This document shows, piece after piece, positions 1 to 62,903 of a stretch of DNA of 62,903 nt. Every line of letters starts with the position of its first letter. Within the stretch, counting starts at the first letter, position 1. The DNA is taken from assembly GCA_005884125.1 (NCBI GenBank), contig VAXP01000119.1:18788-81690 (forward strand). The letters are read 5' to 3'. The position numbers were made by a program, and so were the translations under genes. The notes under the pieces were generated by a model that was not told the DNA's origin, did no database searches, and worked only from the letters and a program-made list of their open reading frames with translations. The stretch is from Actinomycetota bacterium (GTDB taxonomy: Bacteria > Actinomycetota > Acidimicrobiia > Acidimicrobiales > AC-35).

Positions 1-1130
1 TGGGCCAGGAGGTCGCCCAGGCGCTCGTTCATGGCCGTCGACCCGCAGATGTCGCTGAACAGGATGGTCACCGTCCCATCGGGGGCGGTGGGGACGTCGC
101 CGTCCTCGGCCGGGACCGTCTGCTGCGCCTGAGCCGGCGGCGTGGGCCCGCCGGGCGTGGCCGTGGGCGCAGCGACGGGCGGAGCGGCGCCATCAGCGGA
201 GGCCGCGCTCGGGGCGGAGGCCGGGCCTTGGGCCGGGGCCGCGCCCGGGACGGGGGCGGAAGGGTCGGGCGGGGGCCAGGGGGGCTTGGGCGGCCGGGGG
301 GCGACGACGACGGGGTCGGGCATCCCGACCTGCTCCAGGGCGCGCTGCCACTCCTCCCGGGCCCGCTCCACGGCCCGCCCGGCGTGGCGGTGGGCGCGGG
401 CCACGTGCTGCTCCCAGTGCTGCTGGCGCCGACCGATCCTCTGCTGCTGGCGCTGGAGCTTCTCCTGCATGAGCTGGTCGATGCCCTGGGCCAGGTGCTC
501 GACGAAGGGCTTGTGGGAGTTGGGTCCCCGGCTGCGCACCTCGACCCCGCCCATCACGGGGAAGGCGCGTATCCGCACCACGGGAGTGCCGGGGATGGCG
601 GGCACGTCGGCCAGCTTGAGGTCCTTGCCCCCCATGATGGGCAGGCCGGTCAGCTCCACCTCGATGCCCTCGGGCACGTCGATGCGGATGCCGCCCATGA
701 TCGCCACCGCGGTGATGGTGAGCTCGGGGCCGGTGATCTCGGCCTGGCGCAGGTCCAGGTGGCAACCCCCCATGACGGCCACCACGGCCACGTGGTTGCC
801 CGGCCGCCACCGGCCCGTGCGCTTGGCGCCGCTCATGATGGCGACGACCCAGCGGCTGACCCTCCGGCGCCTGGGCTCGAGGGCACGCTCGCCCGTCGTC
901 GCCACCGCGGCCGACACGGGCTCGACGCTCCTGGGCAGATCGGCGAACACGGGCTCGATCTCGGCGCCGGAGCGGGCGGCGTAGACCGTGCCCACCCGCT
1001 CGGAGAACTCGTCCAGGGTCAGGCGGCCGTCGCTCGTGTGGCGCTGGAGGAGCTCAACGGCCCGCTCGCGGTCGGCGTCGGACAGGCGGTCCTCGGGCGC
1101 CGGGCGGCCGTCAGGCGGGCGGTCGGCCAT
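1..1130 (-). CDS. DUF1707 (SHOCT-like) + LiaF-C-like domain + coiled-coil + class III adenylate/guanylate cyclase fusion protein; C-terminus lies beyond the window edge
   Basis: Absent from the ORF track because it runs off the window. My translation from ATG 1130..1128 reads MADRPPDGRPAPEDRLSDADRERAVELLQRHTSDGRLTLDEFSERV (DUF1707 signature), then VAVVAVMGGCHLDLRQAEI / AIMGGIRIDVPEGIEV (LiaF/DUF2154-like), a Q/R-rich helix and a Pro/Ala linker. GTVTILFSDICGSTAMNERLGD (cyclase F-x-D-I-x-G-S-T motif) sits at the window edge. Confidence 0.75.
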   Translation of the reverse strand, partial: MADRPPDGRPAPEDRLSDADRERAVELLQRHTSDGRLTLDEFSERVGTVYAARSGAEIEPVFADLPRSVEPVSAAVATTGERALEPRRRRVSRWVVAIMSGAKRTGRWRPGNHVAVVAVMGGCHLDLRQAEITGPELTITAVAIMGGIRIDVPEGIEVELTGLPIMGGKDLKLADVPAIPGTPVVRIRAFPVMGGVEVRSRGPNSHKPFVEHLAQGIDQLMQEKLQRQQQRIGRRQQHWEQHVARAHRHAGRAVERAREEWQRALEQVGMPDPVVVAPRPPKPPWPPPDPSAPVPGAAPAQGPASAPSAASADGAAPPVAAPTATPGGPTPPAQAQQTVPAEDGDVPTAPDGTVTILFSDICGSTAMNERLGDLLA

Positions 1131-2037
1131 CGTCCAAGTGTGGCCCATCCCGCCCCTGGGCGGCATCTGCGCCGCCGGGGACCGGGCCCGCGGGCGCCTC
1201 CCCGGCCCGGGCGTGGATTGGACCCTCGACGTCCCTCAGCGACGGCGCCTTCCGCCCCGTGCGCAGGGCGATCATCTCGGCGCATACGGACACGGCCGTC
1301 TCCTCGGGGGTGCGGGCGCCGATGTCGAGCCCGATGGGAGCCATCACCCGGCCCAGGCCCTCCTCCCCGACCCCGGCCTCCCGCAGCCGGGCGACCCGCT
1401 CGGCGTGGGTCCGGCGCGATCCCATGGCGCCCAGGTAGCCGACGCGCGTCCGAAGGGCGGCCACGATGGCGGGGACGTCGAACTTGGGGTCATGGGTCAG
1501 CACGCACACCGCGTCCCGGGGCCCGAGCTCACCGCCAACCTTGGCCAGGTGGCGGTCGGGCCAGTCCACCACCACCTCGTCGGCCATGGGGAAGCGGGCG
1601 GGCGTGGCGAAGACGGGCCGGGCGTCGCACACCGTCACCCGGTATCCCAACAGCTTGGCCGCCCGCCCCAGCGCGGCGGTGAAGTCCACCGCGCCGAAGA
1701 TCACCATGTGGGGAGGGGGAGCGAAGGACTCGATGAACACGGCCACGGCCCGGCGGCGGGCCTGGCCCCTGGGGCCGTAGTGCCTGGTCGAGGTGAGGCC
1801 CGTCTCCAGCGCGGCGCGGGCGTCGCGCGTCACGACCCGGTCGAGGTCGTCGTTGCCCAGCGTGCCCAGCTCCGCCCCCACCGGTCGCACCAGGAGCTTG
1901 GCCCCGAGGCCCACGCCGTGCTCACCGGGGTCGCCCGCGTCCCCCGCGCCCTCCTCGGGCGTGAGCTCCACCACGGTGGCCAGGGCCACGGCCTCCTCCG
2001 CCCTCAGGGCGTCGCGCAGGGCCTCGTAGAGGGTCAC
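1111..2037 (-). CDS. XdhC/CoxI-family molybdenum hydroxylase maturation protein (XdhC_CoxI + Rossmann XdhC_C domains)
   Basis: ORF 1111..2127 contains MVIFGAVDFTAALGRAAKLLGYRVTVCDARP and PIGLDIGARTPEETAVSVCAEMIA, typical of XdhC. Start placed at GTG 2037, which overlaps the upstream TGA as GTGA; the ORF-track start at 2127 looks like an over-extension. Confidence 0.85.
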   Translation of the reverse strand: MTLYEALRDALRAEEAVALATVVELTPEEGAGDAGDPGEHGVGLGAKLLVRPVGAELGTLGNDDLDRVVTRDARAALETGLTSTRHYGPRGQARRRAVAVFIESFAPPPHMVIFGAVDFTAALGRAAKLLGYRVTVCDARPVFATPARFPMADEVVVDWPDRHLAKVGGELGPRDAVCVLTHDPKFDVPAIVAALRTRVGYLGAMGSRRTHAERVARLREAGVGEEGLGRVMAPIGLDIGARTPEETAVSVCAEMIALRTGRKAPSLRDVEGPIHARAGEAPAGPVPGGADAAQGRDGPHLDDGRPPA

Positions 2038-2351
2038 CAGTCGAGGGGCTCGACGAACACGTGCACCGTCCCCCCGCAGGTCAGCCCCACCGCGAAGGCC
2101 TCGTCGTCGGAGTAGCCGAAGGTGCACAGCCGGGCCACTCCGTCACCAGCCAGCACCTCCAGGGCCTGCTCCACCACCGCGCCCTCCACGCACCCGCCCG
2201 AGACCGACCCCGCCACCTCTCCGTCCTCGCTCACGGCCATGGTGGCGCCGGGATCGCGAGGTCCCGACCCCTCCACCGCGACCACGCGCGCCACCGCGAC
2301 CCTCCGCCCCGCGGCCCGCCAGCGCTCCACCTCGCCCAGAACCTCTTTCAC
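2034..2351 (-). CDS. Stand-alone XdhC_CoxI N-terminal-domain protein
   Basis: 105-aa ORF with VARVVAVEGSGPRDPGATMAV...GSVSGGCVEGAVV, matching the N-terminal XdhC domain. GTG start overlaps the coxE-like stop (GTGA at 2348-2351). Confidence 0.8.
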   Translation of the reverse strand: MKEVLGEVERWRAAGRRVAVARVVAVEGSGPRDPGATMAVSEDGEVAGSVSGGCVEGAVVEQALEVLAGDGVARLCTFGYSDDEAFAVGLTCGGTVHVFVEPLDW

Positions 2352-3478
2352 CGCGCGATCACCTCCGCCAACGATTCGAGGGCGGCCAGGGAATGGCCTT
2401 CCACGAAGGAGTCAACGTAGGGAAGGGCCGCGGCCATCCCTCGGGCCACGGGGGCGTAGCCGGGCGTGGCCTTGAGGGGGTTCACCCACACCACCCGGTG
2501 GGCCACCCTCCGCAGGCGGGCCATCTCGGTCCCCAGCTGGTCGGGGTCACCCCGGTCCCAGCCGTCGGAGAGGATGACCACGATGGCCCCCCGGGCCAGG
2601 CCCCGGACGCCCCAGAGGTCGTTGAAGGTGCGCAGGCCCTCGCCCAGGCGGGTTCCGCCCGACCAGTCGGGGACGGCCCGGGCCGCCCCCGCGAGGGCCG
2701 CGTCGGGGTCGTGCCCGGAGAGCTCCCGGGTGAGGCGGGTGAGGCGGGTGCCCATCGCGAACGCCTCCACCCGGCCCCGGCCCGCCACCGCGGCGTGGAG
2801 GAAGCGCAGCAGGGCGCGGGCGTAGGGCTCCATGGAGCCGCTCACGTCGCACAGCAGCACCACCCGCCGGGGCCGCATGCTCTGCTCCACCCGGGGCCGG
2901 CGCACCACCTCCCCCCCGGCCCGCACGGCCAGGCGCACCGTGCGGCGCAGGTCGGGCCGGCCGTGGCTACGGTGCGAGGGGCGCAGGCGGCGGGAGCGAC
3001 GCAGGGCTCCCACCAGGCGCAGGTCGGCCATGAGGCGGCGGGACTCCGCCAGCTCGGCCGGGCTGTAGACGGCGAAGTCCTTGTGCCTGAGCACCTCGAC
3101 GGGGCTGTAGCGCACGGCCAGGGTGGGCTGGGCCTTCTCGGCGTCGGTGTCCCCGGCGCCGTCGTCGCCCTCGCTGTCGTCGAGGGCCACGACCACCTCG
3201 ACGGGCGGGGGCGCAGGCGGAGGGTCGGGCGGCGCCCCCAGCCAGAAGGCGGCGAAGCCGCTGTCGTAGGCGGCCACGTCCTCCGGGCGGCGCACGAGCG
3301 TCGACCGGCCCGCCCAGTAGACGGGGCCGGGAGCGCCCAGGCCCACCGCGGCCAGGGCCCGGCGGTAGGTGATGACGGTGCCCAGGTCGACGTCGAGCCC
3401 GGCCCGCCGCAGCACGTGGGCGAAGGCCACGGCCAGGCGCTCGGGCTGGTCGGGTGGGATCGGGGCGGGCTCGACCAT
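2348..3478 (-). CDS. VWA-domain CoxE-like protein
   Basis: 376-aa ORF with the MIDAS-like motif VLLCDVSGSMEPYARALLRFLHA. It follows a MoxR/CoxD ATPase gene, as in cox clusters. Confidence 0.85.
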   Translation of the reverse strand: MVEPAPIPPDQPERLAVAFAHVLRRAGLDVDLGTVITYRRALAAVGLGAPGPVYWAGRSTLVRRPEDVAAYDSGFAAFWLGAPPDPPPAPPPVEVVVALDDSEGDDGAGDTDAEKAQPTLAVRYSPVEVLRHKDFAVYSPAELAESRRLMADLRLVGALRRSRRLRPSHRSHGRPDLRRTVRLAVRAGGEVVRRPRVEQSMRPRRVVLLCDVSGSMEPYARALLRFLHAAVAGRGRVEAFAMGTRLTRLTRELSGHDPDAALAGAARAVPDWSGGTRLGEGLRTFNDLWGVRGLARGAIVVILSDGWDRGDPDQLGTEMARLRRVAHRVVWVNPLKATPGYAPVARGMAAALPYVDSFVEGHSLAALESLAEVIAR

Positions 3479-3487
3479 GCCGGGGGC

Positions 3488-4372
3488 TCAGCCCTGGCGG
3501 GCGGCCGCGGCCCGGGCCAGGTCGGCGACGCCCGCCCCCCGTACCCGCTCCGCGTCCTCCCGGTACTTGAGCACGGCGCCCAGGGTGACCTCGATGGTGG
3601 CCTCGTCCAGGGTGGCCCGTCCCAGGGTGGCCAGGGCCAGGGCCCAGTCGATGGTCTCGGCCACACCAGGGGGCTTGTACAGCTGCAGCTCCCTGAGCCG
3701 CTCCACCGCTCCCGCCACCTGGCGGGCCAGGCCCTCGCCCGCCTCGGGGGCGCGCAGGCGGACGATGGCGACCTCGCGCTCGAAGCTCGGGTGCTCCACC
3801 CAGTGGTAGAGGCAGCGCCGCTTGAGGGCGTCGTGCACGTCGCGGGTGCGGTTGGAGGTGAGCACGGCCACGGGCGGGACCTCGGCCCGCACCGTCCCCA
3901 GCTCGGGCACGGTGACGGCGTAGTCCGAGAGGATCTCCAGGAGGAAGGCCTCGAACTCGTCGTCGGCCCGGTCGACCTCGTCGATCAGCAGCACGGGCGG
4001 CGGGTCCGCGGGGACCAGCGCCTGCAGGAGGGGCCGGCGCACCAGGAAGCGCTCGGAGTACAGCTCGTCCTCCACGTCGGTGCCGACCTCGCCTCCGCCC
4101 GCCGCGGCCCTGGCCTCCACCGCCCGCAGGTGCAGGAGCTGACGGGAGTAGTCCCACTCGTAAACGGCCTGGGCCGCGTCGATGCCCTCGTAGCACTGCA
4201 GGCGCAGCAGCTCGCCCCCCGTCCAGCGGGACAGGACCTTGGCCAGCTCCGTCTTGCCCACCCCGGCCTCGCCCTCGAGCAACAGGGGCCGGCGCAGGGA
4301 CAGGGCCAGGAAGACGGCGGTGGCCAGCCCCTCGTCGGCCAGGTAGCCGTGGCGGGCCAGCGCCTGGCTCAC
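3488..4372 (-). CDS. MoxR-like AAA+ ATPase (CoxD-like)
   Basis: Walker A LLLEGEAGVGKTELAKVL and Walker B VLLIDEVDRADDEFEAFLLEIL; about 294 aa, typical of MoxR/CoxD. Confidence 0.9.
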   Translation of the reverse strand: MSQALARHGYLADEGLATAVFLALSLRRPLLLEGEAGVGKTELAKVLSRWTGGELLRLQCYEGIDAAQAVYEWDYSRQLLHLRAVEARAAAGGGEVGTDVEDELYSERFLVRRPLLQALVPADPPPVLLIDEVDRADDEFEAFLLEILSDYAVTVPELGTVRAEVPPVAVLTSNRTRDVHDALKRRCLYHWVEHPSFEREVAIVRLRAPEAGEGLARQVAGAVERLRELQLYKPPGVAETIDWALALATLGRATLDEATIEVTLGAVLKYREDAERVRGAGVADLARAAAARQG

Positions 4373-4439
4373 GTCCTCGACGCCCGACGGCGCCCGCCCG
4401 CCGGGGCTCAGGTCGCTCAGCCCCCGGCCTCCCCGGCCG

Positions 4440-4907
4440 TCACCGGCCCCGCACGGAGGGAGCGGCGGCGAGGACGGCCTTGACGATGTTGTGGTAGCCG
4501 GTGCAACGGCACAGGTTGCCCTCCAGGCCCGTGCGCACCTCGGCCTCGGTGGGATCGGGATGCTCGGCCAGCAGGGAGACCGCGGCCATCACCATCCCCG
4601 GTGTGCAGTAGCCGCACTGGAGGGCGTGGTTCTCCTGGAAGGCCCGCTGCAGCGGGTGCATCTCCTGGCCCCGGGCCAGGCCCTCGATGGTGGTGACCTG
4701 GCCGCCGTCGGCCTGGGCCGTGAGCAGGGTGCAGGACTTCACCGACTCGCCGTCGAGCAGCACGGTGCAGGCTCCGCAGGACGTGGTGTCACAGCCCACG
4801 TTGGTGCCGGTGAGGCCGAGCACCTCGCGCAGGTAGTGCACCAGGAGGAGCCTGGCCTCGACGTCGTCGGTGCGCTCGGCGCCGTTGACGGTGAGCGTGA
4901 CCTTCAC
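4440..4907 (-). CDS. (2Fe-2S)-binding small subunit of a molybdenum hydroxylase (CoxS-like)
   Basis: [16 protein letters not shown] and [14 protein letters not shown]...[10 protein letters not shown] are the two 2Fe-2S cysteine motifs. Start set at GTG 4907, overlapping the large-subunit TGA. Confidence 0.9.
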
Positions 4908-7180
4908 GACCGCCCTCCCTTGGAGTCCTTGGCGTCCTGGATGGCCCGCCACACCCGCTCGGCCGTGAGGGGCATGTCGATGTGGCGCACGCCCAGGTGG
5001 GTGACGGCGTCGACCACGGCGTTGTGCACCGCCGGCGTCGACCCGATGGTGCCCGACTCACCGATGCCCTTGGCCCCCAGCTCGTTGAGAGGCGTGGGCG
5101 TCTCCAGGCGCACGGTCTCGAAGCTGGGTAGCTCGGCTGCGGAGATGAAGCCGTAGTCGGCCAGGTTCGAGGTGACGGGATTGCCGTCCTCGTCGTAGCG
5201 CATCTCCTCCAGCAGGGCCTGGGCCGCGCCCTGGGCCAGGCCCCCGTGGACCTGACCCTCGGCCAGCAGGGGGTTGAGGATGCGCCCGGCGTCGTCCACC
5301 GCCACCATGCGCACCAGCTGCACCCTTCCCGTCTCCGTGTCCACCTGGGCCACGGCCACGTGGGCGCCGAAGGGGAAGGTGGGACCGGCCTGGGTGTAGT
5401 CGACCTCGGCCGCCAGCCCGCCCCGGTCGGAGGCGGCCCCGGCCAGCTCCGACCACGACCGTGACACGGCGGGGGTGCCGGTGACGTGGAAGCGTCCTCC
5501 CACCTTGTCGAGAACCACGTCGTCCACGTTGGCCTCCAGGAGCTCGGCGGCCAGCTGGCGGGCCTTGTCCGCCACCTGGGCCGCGGCCTGGTTCACGGCC
5601 ACGCCCCCCGTCTGCAGCGACCGCGACCCGGCCGTGCCCTGGCCCCGGGGGACCACGTCGGTGTCGCCGTGGATGACCTCGATGTCCTCGATGGGTATGC
5701 CCAGCTGCTCGCTGACGAGCATGGAGAAGGCGGTGGCGTGGCCCTGGCCGTGGGGCGACGTGCCCGTGCGCACCGTGACCTTGCCGTCGGGCCTGACCTC
5801 CACCGCGCCGAACTCGCTGCCGGGGATGCCGCTGGTGATCTCCACGTACACGGACAGGCCGATGCCCAGCTGCACCACGTCGCCCGCCTCCCGGCGGCGG
5901 CGCTGCTCCTCCCGCAGCCCGTCGTAGCCCGCGGCCTCCAGGGCCAGGTCCAGGCCTCGGGCGTAGTTCCCGCTGTCGTAGGTGGTCCCCGTCGGGGTGG
6001 TGAAGGGGAAGGCGTCGGCCGGTATGAGGTTGCGTCTGCGCACCTCGGCCGGGTCCATCCCGATCTCGGCCGCGAACATGTCCACGGCCCGCTCCAGGGC
6101 GGCGGTGGCCTCGGGGCGGCCGGCGCCCCGGTAGGCGGTCATGGGCGTGGTGTTGGTCAGAAGCGACCTGCTGTTGAACTCGACCTTGGGGATGGCGTAC
6201 ACGCCGCTCGCCATGGTGCGGGTCATGAAGGGCAGCATGGCCCCGATGGCGGCGTAGGCCCCCGAGTCCTGGAGCACGGTGATGCGGTAGGCCTCGACCT
6301 TGCCCTGGCGCGACCCGCCCATCTCCACCTCCTGGACCTGTCCCCGCCCGTGGCCCAGGCCGACCATGCTCTCCGAGCGGGTCTCCACCCAGCGCACGGG
6401 CCGGTCCAGCTTGCGGGCCAGCCAGGCCACCAGGATCTCCTCCGGGTACGGGCCCATCTTGGCCCCGAAGCCTCCGCCCACGTCGGGGGCCACGACCCGG
6501 ACCTGGTCGGCTTCGAGCCCGAGCCGGGCGACGAGGGCGTCCTTCACCCCGTGGGCCCCCTGGGTGCTGGCGTAGTGGAGCAGGCGCCCGTCCCGCCACT
6601 CGGCCGCGGCGGCCCGTACCTCCAGGGGGCAGGGGGCCACCCGCTGGTTGACGATGCGCTGGCGGACCACGACCTCACACCCGTCGAAGAGGGACTCGTC
6701 CCGGCCGAAGGCGAGCTCGAAGGCGACGTTGGTGCCCACGTCGGGGAACAGCAGCACGTCCTGGGCCGCCGACTCCTCCGCGCTCATCACCACGGGCAGG
6801 GGCTCGTAGTCCACGAAGACGAGCTCGGCCGCGTCCGGCCCCTGGTAGCGCTCCTCCGTCACGACCACGGCCACGGGCTCGCCCACGAAGCGCACCACGC
6901 CTTGGGCCAGAGCCGGGCGGGTCATGGCCTGGTTGAGGAAGGCCATCTCCGGCGCGGCGGGGGCCATGTCGAGGTCGGCCGCACTGAACACGGCGACCAC
7001 GCCCGGGGCCTTGCGTGCTTCCTCCACGTCCAGCGCGGCGATACGGGCGTGGGCCATGGTCGAGCGCACGTAGGTGGCGTACAGGGCCCCGTCCACGCGC
7101 ACGTCGTCCACGTAGGTCCCGCCCACGGTGAGGAACTTGGGGTCCTCCTTGCGCAGGACGCGGTTGCCCAGAATGCTCAC
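4904..7180 (-). CDS. Molybdopterin-binding large subunit, xanthine dehydrogenase/CO dehydrogenase family, form II CoxL-like
   Basis: 758-aa ORF. The active-site loop reads [14 protein letters not shown] (form II AYRGAGR, not form I AYxCSFR). A GGGAGGGAG Shine-Dalgarno lies upstream of GTG 7180. Confidence 0.9.
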
Positions 7181-7264
7181 GGGTTGCTCCCTCCCGACGA
7201 AGCCGGTCCGCAGGTTACCCAGCGCCCCGCCGCCGGCGTGCGGGAGCGGGCCGGGCCGGGGCGT

Positions 7265-10570
<3,306 letters not shown>

Positions 10571-34204: not shown

Positions 34205-34675
34205 GTGCTCGAGACCGGCCGCCCTGCCCCCGACCTCGAGCTGCCCGACCAGGACGGCCGTCCCGTGCGCCTTCGCGACCACGCCGGGCGGTGGGTCGTG
34301 CTGTGGTGGTATCCCAAGGCCGCCACCCCGGGCTGAACGAGGGAGGGGCAGGGGTTCCGTGACCGAACCCCAGAGCTGACGGAGGCGGGGGCGGACGTGC
34401 TCGGGGTCTCCTTCGACACCCCCGAGGACAACAAGAGCTTCGCCGAGGCGGAGTCCTTCCCGTTCCCGCTGCTCTCCGACGTGGATCGGGCCGCGGCCGA
34501 CGCCTACGGGACCCGGAGGCCTCCGGAGGACCCCCTGGCCGCCCACGTGCCCAGGCGCACCACCTTCCTCATCGACCCCCAGGGCGTGGTGCGGAGGATC
34601 TACGAGGTCACCGACGTGGCCGGTCACGCCCAGGAGGTCCTGGCCGACCTGAAGGCGCTGACCGGAGGGGCCTAG
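34205..34675 (+). CDS. bcp: Bcp/PrxQ-type peroxiredoxin with in-frame TGA (34334-34336) at the peroxidatic Cys position; candidate selenocysteine, or alternatively a nonsense pseudogene
   Basis: Single-frame translation from GTG 34205: VLETGRPAPDLELPDQDGRPVRLRDHAGRWVVLWWYPKAATPG[TGA]TREGQGFRDRTPELTEAGADVLGVSFDTPEDNKSFAE...FPLLSD...RTTFLIDPQG. This is colinear with E. coli Bcp (YFYPKAMTPGCT). The ORF track lists only the last 92 aa. Confidence 0.7.
34351..34371 (+). promoter_or_regulatory. SECIS-like hairpin 14 nt downstream of the in-frame UGA
   Basis: GGGGUUC-CGUGACC-GAACCCC: a 7-bp stem and a 7-nt loop containing GU, with the loop about 25 nt from the UGA. Confidence 0.45.
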
Positions 34676-48815: not shown

Positions 48816-50551
48816 AGACCGACGCGCCGGTCCGACCCGTCCTTCTGCCCCAGCCCCGCACCTTGCGCCTGGACGGCGCCACGGCGCCGCAGCGCGAACC
48901 AGGCGCGATCGTCGACGCCAGGCTCCCCCCTCAGGGATACCGCCTGCGCATCGGGCCCGACGCCATCGAGCTGGCCGGCGGGGACGAGGCCGGCCTCTCC
49001 TACGGACGGGCCACGCTGGCCCAGCTGGCCCGGTGGTGTGGGCACCAGGGGCAGCACGGGCAGCTGCCCACCGGGGTCATCGAGGACAACCCCGACATCG
49101 CCGTCAGGGGCGTGATGCTCGACGTGTCCCGCGACAAGGTCCCGACCATGACGACGTTGCGCGACCTGATCGACCGGCTGGCGGGCTGGAAGGTCAACCA
49201 CCTCCAGCTCTACATGGAGCACGTCTTCGCCTACAGCAACCACGGTGAGGTCTGGGCCCAGGCCGATCCCTTCACCGCCGACGAGCTGTCCGAGCTCGAC
49301 CGACTCTGCCGGGACCGTCACGTCGAGCTCGTGCCCAACCAGAACTGCCTGGGCCACGCCGAGCGCTGGCTGGCCCACCCCCGCTACCGGCCTCTCGCCC
49401 TGGCCCCGGACGGCTTCGTCGACCCCTGGGGACGGCGGAGGGGGCCGTCCACGCTGGACCCGGCCCACCCCGGCTCCTTGGCCCTGGTGCGCGAGCTGCT
49501 GGCCGAGCTGCTGCCCTGCTTCTCCAGCTCCCGGGTGCACGTGGGGCTGGACGAGCCCTGGGAGCTGCCCGAGCAACGCATCGCCGAGTACGGCGAGTGG
49601 CTCGGCCGGCTGCGTTCCCTGCCCGAGCTCGACGGGCACGAGATGCTGGTCTGGGGCGACATCCTCGCCACCCACCCGGGCCTGCTGGGGGAGGTCCCCA
49701 AAGGGGTGACGGTCTGCGAGTGGGGCTACGAGGACTGGCACCCCTTCGACCCGCGGGTCCAGGCCCTGGCCGGCGCCGGCCTGCCCTTCTGGGTCTGCCC
49801 CGGGACCTCGAGCTGGCTGAGCGTGCTCGGCCGGACCACGAACGCGTGGGGCAACTGCGAGCGGGCCGCGGCCGCCGCCCTCCGCCACGGGGCCCAGGGG
49901 TACCTGGTAACCGACTGGGGCGACAACGGCCACCTTCAGCACCTCCCCGTCAGCGAACCGGGCCTGGCCGCGGGGGCGGCGCTGTCGTGGTGCCGGGAGG
50001 CCAACTCCGACCTCGACCTGGCCGCGGCCCTGAGCGTCCATGCCTTCGACGATGCGACGGGCGTGCTGGCCCGGGCGCTGGTGGAGCTGGGCGACGTGCA
50101 CCGGGTCGTCAAGCCCCAGGTCCCCAACATGTCCGTGCTCACCCTCCACCTCTACGCGCCCCGCATCCGTCTGGGGCGGCGCCTGACCGAGGGCCTGACC
50201 CCAGAGGACCTGCTCGAGGTGGAGCGCCGCATCGACGCCGCCGTCGCCGCGTTGGACCGGTCCCGACCCCAGAGGGAGGACGGCGAGCTGGTGCTCGATG
50301 AGGTGCGGGCCGGGGCCGGTCTGGTGCGTCTCCTGTGCCGGGACGGGAGGGCCCGCCTGGACGGCGACGGCAGGCTGGCCGCGGTTCCGGAGAAGGAGCG
50401 GGCCGAGCTGGCCGCGACCCTCGAGCCCATGATCGACGAGCACCGCCGCCTGTGGCTGGCGCGCAACCGACCCGGGGGCCTCAGCGACAGCGCGTCCTGG
50501 CTGGAGCGTCTGCTGCGGGCCTACCGCACGGGCGAGGTCGAACCCGCCTGA
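48812..50551 (+). CDS. GH20-family beta-N-acetylhexosaminidase-like glycoside hydrolase
   Basis: RGVMLDVSRDKVP, NHLQLYMEH, and VHVGLDEPWE (the H-x-G-x-D-E catalytic pair). GTG 48812 overlaps the GNAT TGA. Confidence 0.8.
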   Translation: MKTDAPVRPVLLPQPRTLRLDGATAPQREPGAIVDARLPPQGYRLRIGPDAIELAGGDEAGLSYGRATLAQLARWCGHQGQHGQLPTGVIEDNPDIAVRGVMLDVSRDKVPTMTTLRDLIDRLAGWKVNHLQLYMEHVFAYSNHGEVWAQADPFTADELSELDRLCRDRHVELVPNQNCLGHAERWLAHPRYRPLALAPDGFVDPWGRRRGPSTLDPAHPGSLALVRELLAELLPCFSSSRVHVGLDEPWELPEQRIAEYGEWLGRLRSLPELDGHEMLVWGDILATHPGLLGEVPKGVTVCEWGYEDWHPFDPRVQALAGAGLPFWVCPGTSSWLSVLGRTTNAWGNCERAAAAALRHGAQGYLVTDWGDNGHLQHLPVSEPGLAAGAALSWCREANSDLDLAAALSVHAFDDATGVLARALVELGDVHRVVKPQVPNMSVLTLHLYAPRIRLGRRLTEGLTPEDLLEVERRIDAAVAALDRSRPQREDGELVLDEVRAGAGLVRLLCRDGRARLDGDGRLAAVPEKERAELAATLEPMIDEHRRLWLARNRPGGLSDSASWLERLLRAYRTGEVEPA

Positions 50552-50750
50552 CCGAGGTCGATGGCGCTCGACCGACGCGTCGCGCCACGGCGGAGTTCTC
50601 GGCTTCGTCCCCGATGTCCGGGTCCTGAGTCCGGGCGCAAGCCGAATCCCTGGGGCTTCCTTACCGCTTCTTGGGTCAGGGTGCTTGGCCCGGCGCGCCG
50701 ATCAATTCCTTCGAACTCGCTGAATGAATCAAGCCAACCGAGGAGCTGCA

Positions 50751-51458
50751 ATGGAACACAGGAAGGCCTTGGCGGTGGCTGGAGGAGTCGCCCTCCTCTC
50801 CCTTTCCGGATCTCTGGCCGTCGGCGCCACCGCGGGGCTGCTGGGCTTCACCGTTCCCAAACAGCTGGGACGGGTCGGCTCCTTCGTCCCCACATCGGTG
50901 GCGAGCGGCCCCGTCGCCGCGACCGCCCCTCGATACACCACCGCGGCCAACACGGGCTGGGCCACCCAGCCCGCGCCGGCCACGGCGGCGGTGGCACCGC
51001 CCGCGGCCGCGGCGGCCGCCGCTCCCACCGTGCCCACCCTGGCCGCGCCGCCGCTGATCGGCGGGGTCCAGGTGCAGGTCGCCCCGGGACAACCGGCGGC
51101 CGGCCCCTCGGCTCCCGCGGCCACAGGACCCATTCCGGCCCCGTCGGCTCCGCCCGCCGCCGGGCCCGTCGACCCCTCGGCCAACACCTCCATCCAGGCG
51201 ACGCCCGCTACCCAGCCCCCGCCCAACCCGAACACGTCGCAGCCGGCATCGCCTCCCCCGTCGTCCACCGATCCCGCACCGGCACCCCAGCCGGCTCCGA
51301 GCTCGAGCCCGTCGACCACGTCCACCACCGCCGCCCCCGCTCCCGCGCCGGCACCGCAGCCGGCCCCGAGCACGACGACGACCACGGCGGCGCCTGCCCC
51401 CAGCACCACCACCACGAGCACCACCGCCCCCCAGGCCAGCTCGTCCGCCGACGACTGA
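50751..51458 (+). CDS. Membrane-anchored Pro/Ala/Thr-rich low-complexity protein
   Basis: AGGAG Shine-Dalgarno 5 nt upstream of ATG 50751, an N-terminal hydrophobic segment ALAVAGGVALLSLSGSLAVGA, then a PAT-rich tail. A family-level function cannot be assigned. Confidence 0.55.
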   Translation: MEHRKALAVAGGVALLSLSGSLAVGATAGLLGFTVPKQLGRVGSFVPTSVASGPVAATAPRYTTAANTGWATQPAPATAAVAPPAAAAAAAPTVPTLAAPPLIGGVQVQVAPGQPAAGPSAPAATGPIPAPSAPPAAGPVDPSANTSIQATPATQPPPNPNTSQPASPPPSSTDPAPAPQPAPSSSPSTTSTTAAPAPAPAPQPAPSTTTTTAAPAPSTTTTSTTAPQASSSADD

Positions 51459-51483: not shown

Positions 51484-52509
51484 ATGAGCCGCAAGCGCAA
51501 CGACGACACCGGGAGCTCCGCTGAGAGCTCCACCCAGGGCTCCGAGCCCCTGGGCTCCGAGACCCTTCACCGCCTCACGTCAGAGAGTGCCGCCGCCTCG
51601 AGCGGCGACGCCACGGTCGAGCGGATCCGCAAGCGGGCCCAGCGCCGGCCCGCGGCGAGCGCCGGTCTGATCGGCTTCGAGGCTCCCCTCGCCGACGGGA
51701 CGGGTGCCCCGCCAGCCCCGTCCCGTCGGACTCCACGCGGATCGGGCGGCCGCAAGCGCCGCCACGTCGCTACCGGCGCCCGGGCCGTGATGGCCGGCGT
51801 CAGCGCGTCGAGCGCCTTCATCGTCATGGGGCAGCTGGTCATGAACGAGCAGCGGGCCACCGCCGCCCTCAAGAAGACCAAGGCGTCGAGCACGGACGCG
51901 ACGCAGTCGGCCGGGAGCACCACCGCCTCGGTCGCAGCCGGCGCGGCCCCGGCGGACACGACGACCACGGGAGCCCCGGGCTGGAGCGCCAACCCCGCCG
52001 CCGCTCCCCCCGGCACCGTCCCCCCGGGTGCCACCGCCTCGACCGTGGCCGGCGCCCCCGCCGGCGTGGCCGCCCCCGGAGCCCCCTCGGCCGGCGGCCA
52101 GCCCGCTTCCGCCGGCGGCGGAGCGGTGGCCATGGGCGGCCAGACGGCGGCGGGCATGCCCACGACCAACGCCCAGGCCGTGCCCGGCGGCCAGCCCACG
52201 GCCGTCGCCCCCGCAGCCGGCAGTCAGCCCGCGGGACCGGCCACGTCCTCGGGCGGGGCGCCCTCCTCGGCTCCCCCCCAGTCGAGCCCACCTCCTTCCG
52301 GAGGGGCGCCGGCCCCGAGCCCGAGCCCCCGGCCTCAGCCCAGCCCGAGCCCCCAGCCTCAGCCCAGCCCGAGCCCCCAGCCGAGCCCGAGCCCCCAGCC
52401 CCAGCCTCAGCCCCAGCCTCAGCCCTCGCCCCAGACGACGACTACGCAGCCCCCCAAGCCGACCACCACCACTACCCCCCCCAAGGCCTGTGGTAGCAAG
52501 CCCTGCTAG
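51484..52509 (+). CDS. Single-pass membrane protein with a basic cytoplasmic N-terminus and an extracytoplasmic Pro/Ser/Gln/Thr-rich repeat tail
   Basis: TM segment AVMAGVSASSAFIVMGQLVM at about aa 101-120, then low complexity ending (PSPSPQPQ)n...TTTTTPPKACGSKPC. Confidence 0.55.
   Translation: MSRKRNDDTGSSAESSTQGSEPLGSETLHRLTSESAAASSGDATVERIRKRAQRRPAASAGLIGFEAPLADGTGAPPAPSRRTPRGSGGRKRRHVATGARAVMAGVSASSAFIVMGQLVMNEQRATAALKKTKASSTDATQSAGSTTASVAAGAAPADTTTTGAPGWSANPAAAPPGTVPPGATASTVAGAPAGVAAPGAPSAGGQPASAGGGAVAMGGQTAAGMPTTNAQAVPGGQPTAVAPAAGSQPAGPATSSGGAPSSAPPQSSPPPSGGAPAPSPSPRPQPSPSPQPQPSPSPQPSPSPQPQPQPQPQPSPQTTTTQPPKPTTTTTPPKACGSKPC
52333..52380. repeat. Two perfect 24-nt tandem units (cctcagcccagcccgagcccccag) within a longer degenerate PSPQ-coding repeat (about 52314-52430)
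   Basis: Direct read: 52333-52356 is identical to 52357-52380. Confidence 0.9.
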
Positions 52510-59848: not shown

Positions 59849-61012
59849 GTGACAGTGGAAGCCGAGCCCGCGCCGTCCGGGCCGCCCAGTCTCGCCGGAC
59901 TGGTCGTCGGCATCACCGCCGACCGCCGGGCCGGCGAGCAGGCCGAGCTGCTGCGTCGCATGGGGGCGAAGGTCCTGCACGGACCGACGATCAACACCCT
60001 CACCGTGGGGGACCAGGACCGGGTGTTGGCCGCGACCGCCGACGTCGTCGCTCGACCGCCGGAGGTCGTTCTCGCCACCACCGGGATCGGTATGCGCAGC
60101 TGGATGGTGATGGCGGAGACGGCCGGGGTGGATGCCGCTCTTCTCCGGACCCTGGGTCGGGCGCGCATCGTGGCCCGAGGCCCGAAGGCGGCAGGCGCGG
60201 TGCGGCAGATGGGTCTCGAGGTCTGGCACCTCGAAGAGACCGAGCGCCTCGACGGCATGGTCGCCTGGCTGGTGGATCGGGGCGTCTCAGGGGTGCGTAT
60301 GGCGCTTCAGGAGTACGGCAACCAGGCTCCCTGGGCTCTGGCCGCCCTCCGCGATGCCGGAGCCGACGTGACCAGCGTCCCCGTCTACCGCTGGACGCTC
60401 CCGCCGGACCGGGCGCCCGCCATCAGGCTCATACAGGCCACCGTCGACGGGCGGGTCGATGTGGTCACCTTCACCAGCGCGCCCGCGGTCGGGAACATGT
60501 TCGCCATCGCCTCGGCCGCCGGGCTGGACGACCGGTTGCGCCCCGCCCTGCAACGCATGGTCGTGGCCGCGGTCGGTCCGGTAACGGCCGCCGCCGTCGC
60601 CGGCATGGGCATGGACGGCTGCGTCGCACCCGACCGGGGCCGGCTCGGCCTGATGGTCAGGCGGCTGTCGGATTCGCTCGTGGGTAGCGGCGACCGGGTG
60701 GCGGTGGGCGATGCCGAGGTGATCGTCCGGGGGTCGGCGGTCATGAGGGGCGGCATGCGCATCGAGCTTCCCGATCGGGAGCGGGCGCTGCTCGCTGCTC
60801 TGCTCCGGCGGCCGGGAGCGGTGGTCTCCCGGCGGGCCCTGTTGGCCGAGCTGTGGGGCGCGGACGCCGACCCCAAGACGGTGGACTCGGCCATGGCCCG
60901 GCTCCGGCGCCGGGTGGCCGGCGTGGGTCTGGCCATCCAGGCTGTGCCCCGCCGCGGCTACCGGTTGGACACGGCCGGCCAGACGCCGGACGTCACCCGG
61001 GCTGACCGGTGA
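59849..61012 (+). CDS. nnaR: Uroporphyrinogen-III synthase (HemD)-like domain fused to an OmpR/PhoB-type winged-helix DNA-binding domain (NnaR-like nitrate/nitrite assimilation regulator)
   Basis: HemD-like VVLATTGIGMRSW...VTFTSAPAV; C-terminal LPDRERALLAALLRRPGAVVSRRALLAELWG...VDSAMARLRRRV...VPRRGYRL. Start at GTG 59849 or 59855. Confidence 0.8.
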   Translation: MTVEAEPAPSGPPSLAGLVVGITADRRAGEQAELLRRMGAKVLHGPTINTLTVGDQDRVLAATADVVARPPEVVLATTGIGMRSWMVMAETAGVDAALLRTLGRARIVARGPKAAGAVRQMGLEVWHLEETERLDGMVAWLVDRGVSGVRMALQEYGNQAPWALAALRDAGADVTSVPVYRWTLPPDRAPAIRLIQATVDGRVDVVTFTSAPAVGNMFAIASAAGLDDRLRPALQRMVVAAVGPVTAAAVAGMGMDGCVAPDRGRLGLMVRRLSDSLVGSGDRVAVGDAEVIVRGSAVMRGGMRIELPDRERALLAALLRRPGAVVSRRALLAELWGADADPKTVDSAMARLRRRVAGVGLAIQAVPRRGYRLDTAGQTPDVTRADR

Positions 61013-61940
61013 CCAGCGCGCTCACCGACTCTCTGGTCTCGACGACGGCCCCGTCCACCCTCGGTGCGGCCGCGCCTTCGACCTCCCGAGCCAGAGCCGT
61101 GACCCCCGCCACCGTGTCGGTGGCACCCGCGGCGACGGCAACGGGCTCTGCCCGACCGGCCCAACCGTAGGCCAAGCCGACGAGCAGTCCCCCGCCGAGG
61201 ACGTTTCCGGGGACGGTGAACACCAGGTTGCGCGTCATCTCGGACCAGCCGGCCAGAGGGACGTGCCCGAATATCCCCAGGCCGAAGACCGTCATGTTGG
61301 CGATGGAGTGCTCGAAGCCGGAGGCGATGAAGGCCAGCAGGGCCCACCACAGGCAGATGAGCTTGGCCGCGTCGCTCCTGGTGCGACCGGCCATCCACAG
61401 AGCCAGGCAGACGAGCATGTTGCACAGGATGGAGCGCATGAAGAGCTGCCCACCGCTGAGCCCCGCCTTGGACTTGACGATCCCCGCGAGCGTCGCCATG
61501 AAGACCGTTGGCTGGCCCCTGGCCGCGCCCGCGCTCAGGACGCCGCTGGCGTTGACGAGACCGGCGAACAGCAGCGACCCGGCCAGGTTGCCCAGCAGGG
61601 ACGCGACCCAGACGACCCCGACGTCGAGGGCCCGCACCCTTCTCCTCATGAGGCCCTGGAGCATGACCATGACATTGCCGGTGAACAGCTCGGCCCCGGC
61701 GAAGACAACCAGGGTCAGGGCCACCCCGAAGACGGCGCCCTGGACGAGCTTCGCGCTGGGCGACTTCGCCGCCACGAATGCGGCGCTGACCATCACCAGC
61801 AGGACGACAGCGACCCCGACGTAGGCCCCGGCCATGGCCGAGGTGGCCAGGTACCTGGCCATGGATGTTCTGGCGGCGCGCGCCTTGGTGATCGCGGACG
61901 TCTGCTGGTCTTCCAACGCCTCGCTGACGGGAATGGGCAT
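60993..61940 (-). CDS. Formate/nitrite transporter family protein (NirC/FocA-like)
   Basis: GAELFTGNVMVM and FIASGFEHSIANM pore motifs, plus a C-terminal cytoplasmic extension. Confidence 0.9.
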   Translation of the reverse strand: MPIPVSEALEDQQTSAITKARAARTSMARYLATSAMAGAYVGVAVVLLVMVSAAFVAAKSPSAKLVQGAVFGVALTLVVFAGAELFTGNVMVMLQGLMRRRVRALDVGVVWVASLLGNLAGSLLFAGLVNASGVLSAGAARGQPTVFMATLAGIVKSKAGLSGGQLFMRSILCNMLVCLALWMAGRTRSDAAKLICLWWALLAFIASGFEHSIANMTVFGLGIFGHVPLAGWSEMTRNLVFTVPGNVLGGGLLVGLAYGWAGRAEPVAVAAGATDTVAGVTALAREVEGAAAPRVDGAVVETRESVSALVTGQPG

Positions 61941-61985
61941 GGAGCTCCTCTCTCTCGCTCTCTCGCTGATGCTCGGTGGATCCCC

Positions 61986-62903
61986 TTAGACCAGGGCGGC
62001 TTCCAGGGGGGGCGACACGGCCGGGGCCGAGCCAGCTGGGAGCCGGTCGGGCTCGTCCCCTCCCGCCTCGAACCCGGAGGCGACGGACTCGAGATGGGCG
62101 CAGAAGGCCTCGATGCCGATCCGGGAGATGGTCCCGGCCATGGACTCGCCCGCGGTACGCAACGCTTCCCAGCACCCGACGAGCGACCCGACGGTGTCCT
62201 CGACGTCTTCCTCGGCCACCCGACCGGCGAGGACGCCGAGGCGCCCCCACCCCAGGTCGGCGCCCAGCCAGACGTGGTACCCCAGCCGGACCCGACCGCC
62301 GATCCGAACCTTGGCGCCGGACAGACCTATGTCGGCTGCATGGTGCTGGGCGCAAGAGTTGGGACAGCCCGAGACGTGGAGCCGAAGACCCGTGTTCCGT
62401 GCCAGCGCCGGATGGCTCAGCAGGCGGGCGCCGACGGAGGGTGCGGCCGTGATGCCCAGGCTGCAGACGGCGGACCCCGTACAGGCCCGGACGTCGGTGG
62501 CGCCATCGGCACCCTCGGCGCACAGGCCGTGGGCCAGCAGCGCCCGGCGCAGCCTCGGGATGTCGTGGACGAGGACGTCGCGGAACATGGCGTTCTGGTT
62601 CCGCGTCAGGTGCAGCCGGCCGCTGCCCATGGGCGCGAGCGACGCCAGCAGCCTCATGTCGTCGCTGTCGAGGTCCCCCAGAGGGACGTTGACCGTCACC
62701 ATGGCTCGCCCCTGCTGGCGCTGGGGCCTGACACCCCCGGCCCAACCGCCCGGTGGGACGACGGCCAGGACGCGGGCGAAGTCGGCCGGAGCGGGGACCT
62801 CGACGCCGCCCGGCCCCGCGCCACCCCGGCGACGAGCCCGGACGAGGGCGTCGTCGAAGGCGGCGCGGAACATCTCCGCGCCGATCCTCTCCGTCACGAA
62901 CTT
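61986..62903 (-). CDS. Ferredoxin-type nitrite/sulfite reductase, C-terminal half (5' end outside the window)
   Basis: Sirohaem-[4Fe-4S] cysteine clusters VRACTGSAVCSLG and VSGCPNSCAQHHAADIG. The frame stays open to the window edge. Confidence 0.88.
   Translation of the reverse strand, partial: KFVTERIGAEMFRAAFDDALVRARRRGGAGPGGVEVPAPADFARVLAVVPPGGWAGGVRPQRQQGRAMVTVNVPLGDLDSDDMRLLASLAPMGSGRLHLTRNQNAMFRDVLVHDIPRLRRALLAHGLCAEGADGATDVRACTGSAVCSLGITAAPSVGARLLSHPALARNTGLRLHVSGCPNSCAQHHAADIGLSGAKVRIGGRVRLGYHVWLGADLGWGRLGVLAGRVAEEDVEDTVGSLVGCWEALRTAGESMAGTISRIGIEAFCAHLESVASGFEAGGDEPDRLPAGSAPAVSPPLEAALV

Follow-up and report, generated by a model that had tools for sequence, protein, structure and literature searches.

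Selenocysteine (Sec)-containing peroxiredoxins (Prx) are an established family of prokaryotic selenoproteins, for which the active-site motif TxxU or, at greater length, PxxxTxxU has been given (PMC13188914). A total of 43 such sequences, assigned to COG1225, were counted in Sargasso Sea data in 2005 (PMC1088965), and 12 Prx selenoprotein sequences in bacterial genomes in 2006 (PMC1794560). Bcp-type peroxiredoxins that contain Sec (COG1225, TxxU) have been on record since 2004–2005, and this kind of selenoprotein is not new. COG1225 is here taken to be the Bcp group. The present analysis concerns a 62,903-nucleotide stretch of contig VAXP01000119.1, from a bacterium of the Acidimicrobiales (hereafter, the window), in which positions 34205–34675, judged by comparative sequence analysis, very probably form one gene for a Sec-containing Bcp/PrxQ peroxiredoxin, i.e., a genuine selenoprotein gene.

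With the described bacterial Sec-Prx family, the predicted product shares the Pfam domain (PF00578), the motif with its peroxidatic Sec, widespread cysteine (Cys) homologues, and a selenocysteine insertion sequence (SECIS) located in the open reading frame (ORF) just past the UGA. The published examples, however, come mostly from Deltaproteobacteria, Clostridia, and unassigned marine reads, and the soil, sediment, and sponge Acidimicrobiia clade to which the window gene belongs is not mentioned there. The same peroxidatic Sec has been shown experimentally for PrxU of the strict anaerobe Eubacterium acidaminophilum (NF040737; Sohling et al. 2001). The first-pass annotation of the window had invoked PrxU as a precedent and, biochemically, that precedent holds, though PrxU represents another subfamily with a longer profile (233 positions; the window protein scores 56.3 bits against a cut-off of 270).

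Cys-type Bcp/PrxQ proteins, as represented by Xanthomonas campestris BCP (PDB entries 5iph and 3gkk) and Escherichia coli Bcp (PRK09437), have the YPKxxTPG-C/U-T signature, the active-site Arg, and the fold in common with the window protein, but contain Cys instead of Sec and carry a resolving Cys either at position +5 (E. coli type) or in helix alpha-3, at the site that distinguishes wild-type from mutant X. campestris chains (C or S). In the clade of the window gene, these resolving sites are occupied by Gln or Arg (+5) and by Ala (alpha-3), and the proteins are usually free of Cys altogether. At the RNA level, the nearest described element is the E. coli fdhF-type SECIS captured by the bSECISearch model, which likewise consists of a stable in-ORF stem-loop past the UGA with a small loop, an early G-U, and a spacing of 16–37 nt. 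In contrast to the fdhF element, with which it has no sequence similarity, the window hairpin has no evident bulged U and its lower stem is not conserved. Moreover, in fdhF numbering, the loop GU presumably lies about one codon farther from the UGA than it does in fdhF.

Reading frame and protein family

On the forward strand, a single frame of 156 codons (including the UGA) runs from a GTG at 34205 through the TGA to a TAG at 34673–34675. The GTG was inferred as the start, being the first start past the upstream stop, and relatives open with V[IL]ESG. In the program-made ORF list, the same region appears only as two pieces, a head of 43 aa (34205..34336) and a tail of 92 aa (from GTG 34397 to 34675). 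The first-pass annotation had proposed the continuous frame and had described the tail as all that the ORF track sees; the frame was recovered as proposed, and the statement on the tail was correct, with the head listed as well.

When the head and tail were joined by writing Cys at the TGA, the resulting 156-residue protein matched the AhpC-TSA domain (PF00578) over residues 5–131 with 135.3 bits (E-value of 1.4e-39). Its top NCBIfam matches were PrxQ (114 bits) and Bcp (PRK09437, 106 bits), followed by PrxU (56), AhpC (43), and Tpx (23). Both leading scores lie under the equivalog cut-offs of their models (260 and 140, respectively), meaning that the joined protein is not an equivalog of either, and no NCBIfam model was passed at its cut-off by this protein. 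The nearest PDB structures were all BCP, and X. campestris BCP (5iph; E-value of 1.8e-29) was colinear with the joined protein over residues 8–151. Residue-by-residue alignment with this structure matched the TGA to the peroxidatic Cys of YPKxxTPG-C-T and showed a Gln at position +5, the resolving Cys site, so that two further claims of the first-pass annotation, on the exact replacement of the catalytic Cys codon of Bcp and on the Gln at +5, were borne out. Residues P37, T41, and R118, as well as position 44, were invariant in the alignment of relatives (A1). The features of the locus are collected in Table 1.

Table 1. Features of the probable Sec-peroxiredoxin locus, in window coordinates.
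Feature	Position	Strand	Basis
Sec-containing Bcp/PrxQ-type peroxiredoxin (predicted), complete coding sequence	34205..34675	+	Single frame; Pfam; NCBIfam; head-TGA-tail layout in 104 related loci
Active-site motif P37-K-A-A-T41-P-G-U44 (PxxxTxxU)	34313..34336	+	Aligns with YPKDSTPGC of X. campestris BCP
UGA probably read as selenocysteine, peroxidatic position	34334..34336	+	TGA in 104/104 related loci; opposite Cys in homologues P0001, P0007, and P0008
Bacterial SECIS-type hairpin GGGGUUC-CGUGACC-GAACCCC	34351..34371	+	Fold; covariation; bacterial SECIS (bSECIS) criteria
Conserved active-site arginine codon, R118 (PRR-TTFLIDP)	34556..34558	+	Aligns with Arg of X. campestris BCP IERSTFLLSP

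Within the window (GC content of 73.7%), TGA is also the commonest ordinary stop, terminating 28 of the 40 confident ORFs, and a genome-wide reassignment of this codon can therefore be set aside. Three other in-frame TGA candidates proved to be plain boundaries of adjacent genes in the same frame, leaving the TGA at 34334 as the only one in the window that has coding signal on both sides and is not a plain gene boundary.

Conservation of the TGA codon in relatives

Related loci were gathered by scanning one genome per GTDB species (197 relatives, of which the best 80 were kept) with the peptides W[VI]VLW[WF][YF]P and EGQGFRDR and by adding the contigs of truncated protein-search hits, which yielded a total of 104 loci encoding 90 distinct proteins. 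The 80 kept genomes are metagenome-assembled genomes (MAGs), including complete chromosomes of 3–4.6 Mb, and are mostly labelled Acidimicrobiia, Acidimicrobiales, Ilumatobacteraceae, Acidimicrobiaceae, 'Candidatus Aldehydirespirator', or unclassified Actinomycetota. The gene is present, for example, on the complete chromosomes OZ241894.1, OZ220491.1, OY759762.1, and CATQHS010000001.1. Some truncated members (P0249, P0315, L059, and L099) are labelled Chloroflexota, Actinomyces sp., Nitriliruptorales, or Acidobacteriota, which means that the clade extends past the Acidimicrobiia unless these contigs were mis-binned or mislabelled. In three MAGs, two Sec-peroxiredoxin copies were found on separate contigs, i.e., JBDSMH (L043 and L080), JBDTLT (L044 and L069), and JBJXGF (L051 and L052), and paralogues therefore occur in some genomes.

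The first-pass annotation had proposed to align orthologues and see whether they carry TGA or a Cys codon at this site, and whether the sequence downstream shows decay. TGA was present in all 104 loci (including 80/80 of the GTDB species loci), and TAA, TAG, TGC, or TGT in none. The loci cover protein identities of roughly 50–100%, come from samples of soil, sediment, and sponge, and represent no fewer than two gene neighbourhoods. On each fetched contig, the head runs in frame via the TGA into the tail, with TPG-TGA-T[RKI]EGQGFRDR[TS]P conserved, and syntenic metagenome relatives with tail identities of 74–100% all carry TGA at the same codon between conserved flanks. Eleven loci (L001–L011) match the gene order of the window (carboxyltransferase, GDPD, 206-aa hypothetical, PfkB kinase, Prx, and PepN), and the TGA is found as well in the other neighbourhood (SpoVS, Prx, MiaB, and MiaA) of three NCBI Acidimicrobiia MAGs (L012–L014). 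The 92-aa tail of the window is itself identical on 24 metagenome contigs. No decay was seen downstream in any locus: the ORF past the TGA is unbroken throughout (107–125 codons), and the ratio of nonsynonymous to synonymous substitution rates (dN/dS) for closer pairs is about 0.15–0.25, alike upstream and downstream of the TGA.

Gene callers have dealt with these loci differently. In relatives with visible gene calls, the gene is always recorded as one or two short ORFs, and the NCBI annotation of the three MAGs just mentioned (L012, at 445–912, L013, and L014) gives a 44-aa ORF followed by a 109-aa 'redoxin domain-containing protein'. The latter ORF begins with the second codon past the TGA, ATC, which does not belong to the standard start codons. 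In the protein search, the closest relatives were likewise all truncated tails (P0009 at 91%, P0014 at 89%, P0021 at 80%, P0063 at 74%, and P0053 at 64% identity), and full-length homologues were more distant (56–64% identity). Among the best 120 matches of a tail-profile search, 115 were truncated gene calls of 102–117 aa and 5 were full-length proteins.

A recent nonsense mutation, leaving a pseudogene from which a 43-aa fragment or nothing is made, had been named as the alternative to Sec, and it could appeal to the frequent use of TGA as a stop in the window, to the handling of the locus as two short ORFs by gene callers and NCBI annotation, and to the absence of detectable Sec machinery from the window (see below). 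It is nevertheless effectively refuted by the comparative data and is extremely improbable. The same TGA codon is kept across the whole range of identities, neighbourhoods, and habitats given above and never gives way to TAA or TAG, the downstream ORF is intact everywhere with a dN/dS of about 0.2 on both sides, and the adjacent hairpin shows compensatory substitutions. Since the UGA is kept, the downstream ORF is intact, and purifying selection acts on both flanks, a pseudogene is excluded; a pseudogene spread through chimeric assemblies of one sequence is excluded as well, by the divergence among the relatives.

A second alternative takes the UGA as a true stop and has the tail (92–112 aa) made separately, from the internal start at GTG 34397, in keeping with the in-frame GTG at that position and with the tail proteins called by automated pipelines in many relatives. 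Such a tail, however, would be devoid of the active site (Pro37, Thr41, and residue 44) and of the first strands of the thioredoxin fold, and the called tails (102–117 aa in the profile search and 90–92 aa among the closest relatives) do not have an internal start in common. Moreover, constraint on the head, and on the 60 nt that separate the TGA from 34397, is as strong as on the rest of the gene, and production of two separate proteins is very unlikely.

The SECIS-type hairpin

A hairpin starting 14 nt past the UGA had been noted as a possible SECIS element, and it is found exactly as described. Its stem comprises 7 bp (34351–34357 with 34365–34371) and closes a 7-nt apical loop (CGUGACC, 34358–34364) with G and U at loop positions 2 and 3; the loop lies 21 nt from the UGA, and the hairpin folded alone reaches –10.5 kcal/mol. 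Published bSECIS criteria (PMC13188914) call for a loop of 3–9 nt, an upper stem of 4–16 bp, a G within the first two loop nucleotides with G or U directly after it, a UGA-loop distance of 16–37 nt, and a minimum free energy of at most –7.5 kcal/mol. The window hairpin falls within all of these bounds (7 nt, 7 bp, CGU, 21 nt, and –10.5 kcal/mol), in support of the SECIS-like placement that had been claimed for it. In this window of 74% GC, 1.8% of all positions are followed by a perfect 7-bp hairpin, so that the hairpin alone is only mildly unusual, and its significance rests on comparison with relatives and not on the single sequence.

Whether the hairpin co-varies in relatives was a further question raised by the first-pass annotation, and it was answered in the affirmative with an ungapped alignment of 87 distinct 66-nt segments (A2). 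In the stem columns (27–33 with 41–47), 98.9% of the cells were paired, as opposed to 89.8% in shuffles (0 of 500 reaching the observed value) and at most 66% in slid controls. Double-sided changes were seen in three of the seven stem pairs, i.e., pair 30–44 (GC in 57, CG in 28, and GU in 2 sequences), pair 31–43 (UA in 46, UG in 34, and CG in 7), and pair 33–41 (CG in 81 and GC in 5). The RNAalifold consensus contained the same helix and no other in the stretch.

The compensation spans codons. A synonymous change of Gly GGG to GGC, for example, is matched by a Thr-to-Ser change of ACC to AGC, and in a clade with a 5-nt loop, a Phe-to-Leu change (TTC to CTG) is matched by a change of Arg CGA to AGG and by a Thr-to-Ser change (to TCC). 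In this 5-nt-loop clade (L049, L063, L075, L081, L087, and L092, at around position 10130 in each), the hairpin has been rebuilt as GGGCCUG-CGUGA-CAGGUCC with its 3′ arm shifted by 2 nt, and the encoded peptide is GLRDRS[ETD], as compared with GFRDR[TSA]P elsewhere. The stem and loop of the window hairpin furthermore include the Arg codons CGT and CGA, which are rare in the genes of the window (4.1% and 2.7% of Arg codons, respectively); across A2, CGA keeps its A without exception, and at least 90% of the sequences have the T of CGT.

Cysteine-form orthologues

An exchange between Sec and Cys at a redox-active position had been put forward as a hallmark of such genes, and Cys forms were indeed found. 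The full-length homologues P0001, P0007, and P0008 read TPG-C-T.EGQGFRDR, with Cys opposite the TGA. P0001 (locus L240) is encoded with TGC and shares the PfkB / Prx / PepN / XseB / XseA synteny of the window, and is therefore an orthologue with TGC. It encodes the same GQGFRDR peptide by CAA GGC TTC CGG GAC CGG, and the hairpin is lost. The retention of the rare Arg codons in the TGA forms, together with the loss of the hairpin in this Cys form, indicates selection on the hairpin at the RNA level and a link between hairpin and TGA. P0007 (locus L239:49-510, JGI Ga0633500_0184650), in turn, combines TGC with a perfect hairpin (GGGCTTC CGTGATC GAAGCCC), which, from its sequence, looks like a very recent Sec/Cys switch or a strain polymorphism.

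Weighing selenocysteine insertion

Several observations count against Sec insertion at this codon and have to be set beside the data above. Regarding the hairpin, the 60-nt stretch folds no more stably than its shuffles (z = 0.32), and the Rfam SECIS models gave no match, either for the whole window at the gathering threshold or for 34280–34440 at E-values up to 10. These models cover bacterial SECIS elements poorly, and the same failure on bacterial SECIS elements was met in a 2026 Actinomarina preprint. Regarding the alignment, five 5-nt-loop sequences were put in register by hand, with NN inserted in the loop, and this hand-aligned clade supplies the 5 GC cells of pair 33–41 and, as the alignment reads, 5 of the 7 CG cells of pair 31–43; pair 30–44 is independent of the manual step. 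The sampling is also involved: the scan peptide EGQGFRDR is the very stretch that the hairpin encodes, which biases the sample towards members with a hairpin. Regarding the Sec machinery, neither tRNA-Sec nor selA, selB, or selD was detected in the 62.9-kb window (ARAGORN, Rfam, and NCBIfam on about 36 ORFs). Likewise, the Prx flanks of the relatives (loci totalling about 1.3 Mb) contained no tRNA-Sec according to ARAGORN, and no SelA, SelB, or SelD according to tblastn.

The only tRNA gene found in the window was one for tRNA-Gln, and the SelB-like GTPase that the window does encode turned out to be TypA (788 bits). The tblastn probes were E. coli SelA and SelD and Acidimicrobiales SelA and SelB. 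As a control, 120 SelA loci were searched in the same way, upon which E. coli SelA matched 120 and SelD 10, and ARAGORN reported 25 tRNA-Sec genes. These SelA loci (at least 120) stemmed from metagenome contigs scanned for the GC-rich back-translated motif GDKLLGGPQAG and were ranked by their tetranucleotide similarity to the window.

The top-ranked SelA locus (L185) is a soil contig with IMG id Ga0066705, near the Ga0066700 of a Prx locus (L023) whose tail is 89% identical to that of the window. The best 120 SelA clusters are 72–100% identical to its SelA and, where NCBI names are given, are called Acidimicrobiales, Actinomycetota, or Actinobacteria. A SelA fully identical to it (P0122) is part of an adjacent selA-selB pair on the Acidimicrobiales MAG GCA_035312905.1, and also occurs on ENA contigs from assemblies ERZ27315245 and ERZ28573644 (CRIT18-1), from the same CRIT18-1 / ERZ273152xx series that carries the Prx gene of the window. 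Both members of the pair pass their equivalog cut-offs (TIGR00474 with 395 bits vs. 268, and TIGR00475 with 292 bits vs. 242). The selA-selB contigs (GC content of 0.732–0.739) correlate with the tetranucleotide profile of the window at 0.975–0.981, for which fragments of 3.6–5.1 kb of the window itself reach 0.945–0.981 and fragments of other Acidimicrobiia species at most 0.970.

By this evidence, which is of binning grade and not proof, the organism of the window probably has selA-selB. Also to be counted on the negative side, the link between the pair and the window genome consists only of composition and a shared sample series, with no shared contig or curated genome, and neither selC nor selD is on the selA-selB contigs. 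The search for sel genes that the first-pass annotation had suggested thus came out in part: none was present in the window, selA and selB were found on composition-matched contigs and an Acidimicrobiales MAG, and selC and selD were not found there. An exact look-up of the window PepN retrieved an identical sequence only on ENA contig ERZ27285964 k141_4036884, no NCBI MAG was among the 13 inspected of the 24 contigs bearing the window tail, and the two SelA MAGs looked up (whole-genome shotgun prefixes DATGBB and DATLEK) were absent from the 80 Prx-bearing genomes. A gene common to the SelA and Prx surroundings in some loci, of RidA/YjgF-type look and about 60% identity, was discarded as taxonomically uninformative.

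In the Acidimicrobiales loci L224:942-3983 and L227:8001-11109, selA and selB neighbour each other on one strand, without selC or selD on the 5–17 kb of these loci; in L227, selB is followed by a WhiB-family gene. Elsewhere in the class Acidimicrobiia, selA, selB, selC, and selD are all present in Actinomarina (2026 preprint), and most bins of sponge symbionts, from various phyla, have SelA together with SelB (PMC5649159).

The machinery also bears on a third alternative, in which the UGA is recoded without selenium, the hairpin-driven read-through inserting Cys (by a tRNA-Sec-like tRNA-Cys on SelB), Trp, or another residue. Natural SelB-dependent insertion of Cys at UGA has reportedly been described by Mukai et al. 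(2016). The missing selD and selC on the selA-selB contigs of the lineage would suit this alternative, as would the TGC variant with intact hairpin (L239), from which Cys appears viable at the site. On the other hand, selA, which is specific to the synthesis of Sec-tRNA(Sec), adjoins selB in the lineage and passes its equivalog cut-off, and the hairpin fits the Sec-specific bSECIS model. Moreover, a costly system for inserting a Cys that is one base away (TGA to TGC) fits poorly with TGA in all of the approximately 90 distinct sequences. Selenium-free recoding is therefore considered unlikely, if less so than the two alternatives discussed earlier, and decoding as Sec is retained as the preferred reading.

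Proposed decoding and catalytic mechanism

Under Sec decoding, the hairpin 14 nt past the UGA at 34334 would act as a bacterial SECIS during translation, bringing SelB, loaded with GTP and Sec-tRNA(Sec), to the ribosome, where the UGA would be read as Sec and not as a stop. The product, of 155 residues, would present Sec44 in its PxxxTxxU active site, beside Thr41 and Arg118. Its selenolate would presumably reduce H2O2 or an organic hydroperoxide and become a selenenic acid, which would be recycled directly by an outside thiol reductant, with thioredoxin, or a low-molecular-weight thiol with its redoxin, as candidates.

Among the 90 distinct proteins, position +5 is always one of Q, R, E, and K, whereas position +36 (the alpha-3 position) is Ala in 79 and Cys in 3 of them, and 79 of the 90 contain no Cys at all. 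Because the window protein is free of Cys, at +5 and alpha-3 included, its selenenic acid would have to be reduced by an outside partner. As far as the sequences tell, the clade is a 1-Sec variant of the Bcp/PrxQ subfamily, lacking the resolving Cys of the atypical 2-Cys type, and the 1-Sec mechanism that had been proposed from the Gln at +5 is in this sense supported. The three members with Cys at +36, the alpha-3 resolving-Cys position, belong to the 5-nt-loop clade, and might form a Sec-Cys bond.

An analogy may be drawn with 1-Cys Prx, which have no resolving residue, so that a partner reduces the oxidised catalytic residue. Mycobacterium tuberculosis AhpE (PDB entries 1xxu and 4x0x), for example, was among the weaker structural matches (E-value of about 1e-13), but belongs to another subfamily and carries Cys, not Sec.

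Other features of the window

On the reverse strand, a molybdenum hydroxylase cluster occupies 1111–7264. Its large subunit is of the CoxL / aldehyde-dehydrogenase type, with a score of 668 bits against glyceraldehyde dehydrogenase alpha, and is accompanied by an XdhC-like maturation factor as well as by AAA ATPase and VWA proteins resembling MadB/MadC. Every one of these scores is under its equivalog cut-off. At 52312–52434, about 20 tandem copies of the hexanucleotide GCCCCA (Tandem Repeats Finder score of 96–140) are located within a stretch of coding signal and may encode a proline-rich linker. Over 50400–51300, i.e., for about 1 kb, the three codon phases have nearly equal GC content (0.67–0.81) in a window that is for the most part strongly GC-biased at the third position, and this segment may be non-coding or hold atypical genes; phase-specific GC content gives a normal coding signal over most of the surrounding 47.7–54.9 kb. 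Finally, at the window end (60993–62903, reverse strand), a formate/nitrite transporter family gene adjoins a NirA-like sulfite/nitrite reductase fragment, in what is an ordinary context. Formate metabolism often goes with Sec use, and no formate dehydrogenase was seen.

Implications

Nothing is overturned by these findings, as Sec-peroxiredoxins and bacterial SECIS elements are both well established. What is new is the clade itself, which comprises many Acidimicrobiia species, has a highly conserved SECIS, is almost always Cys-free, and has been missed by gene callers. Annotation pipelines could record these genes correctly if given a family model that has Sec at position 44.

For the organisms, the clade would identify the Acidimicrobiia, abundant in samples of soil, sediment, and sponge, as a group that uses Sec in peroxide defence; in the literature found, Sec was linked to this class only in the 2026 Actinomarina preprint. 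It is conceivable, albeit rather doubtful at present, that the Cys-free 1-Sec PrxQ is the signature selenoprotein of a largely unnoticed, class-wide Sec trait in soil, sediment, and sponge Acidimicrobiia, near-fixed as Sec and helping to maintain the Sec machinery, and that it constitutes a distinct mechanistic subclass with a lineage-specific reductant. For the family, a Sec peroxiredoxin without cysteine would provide a clean natural system for the recycling of a selenenic acid without a resolving residue.

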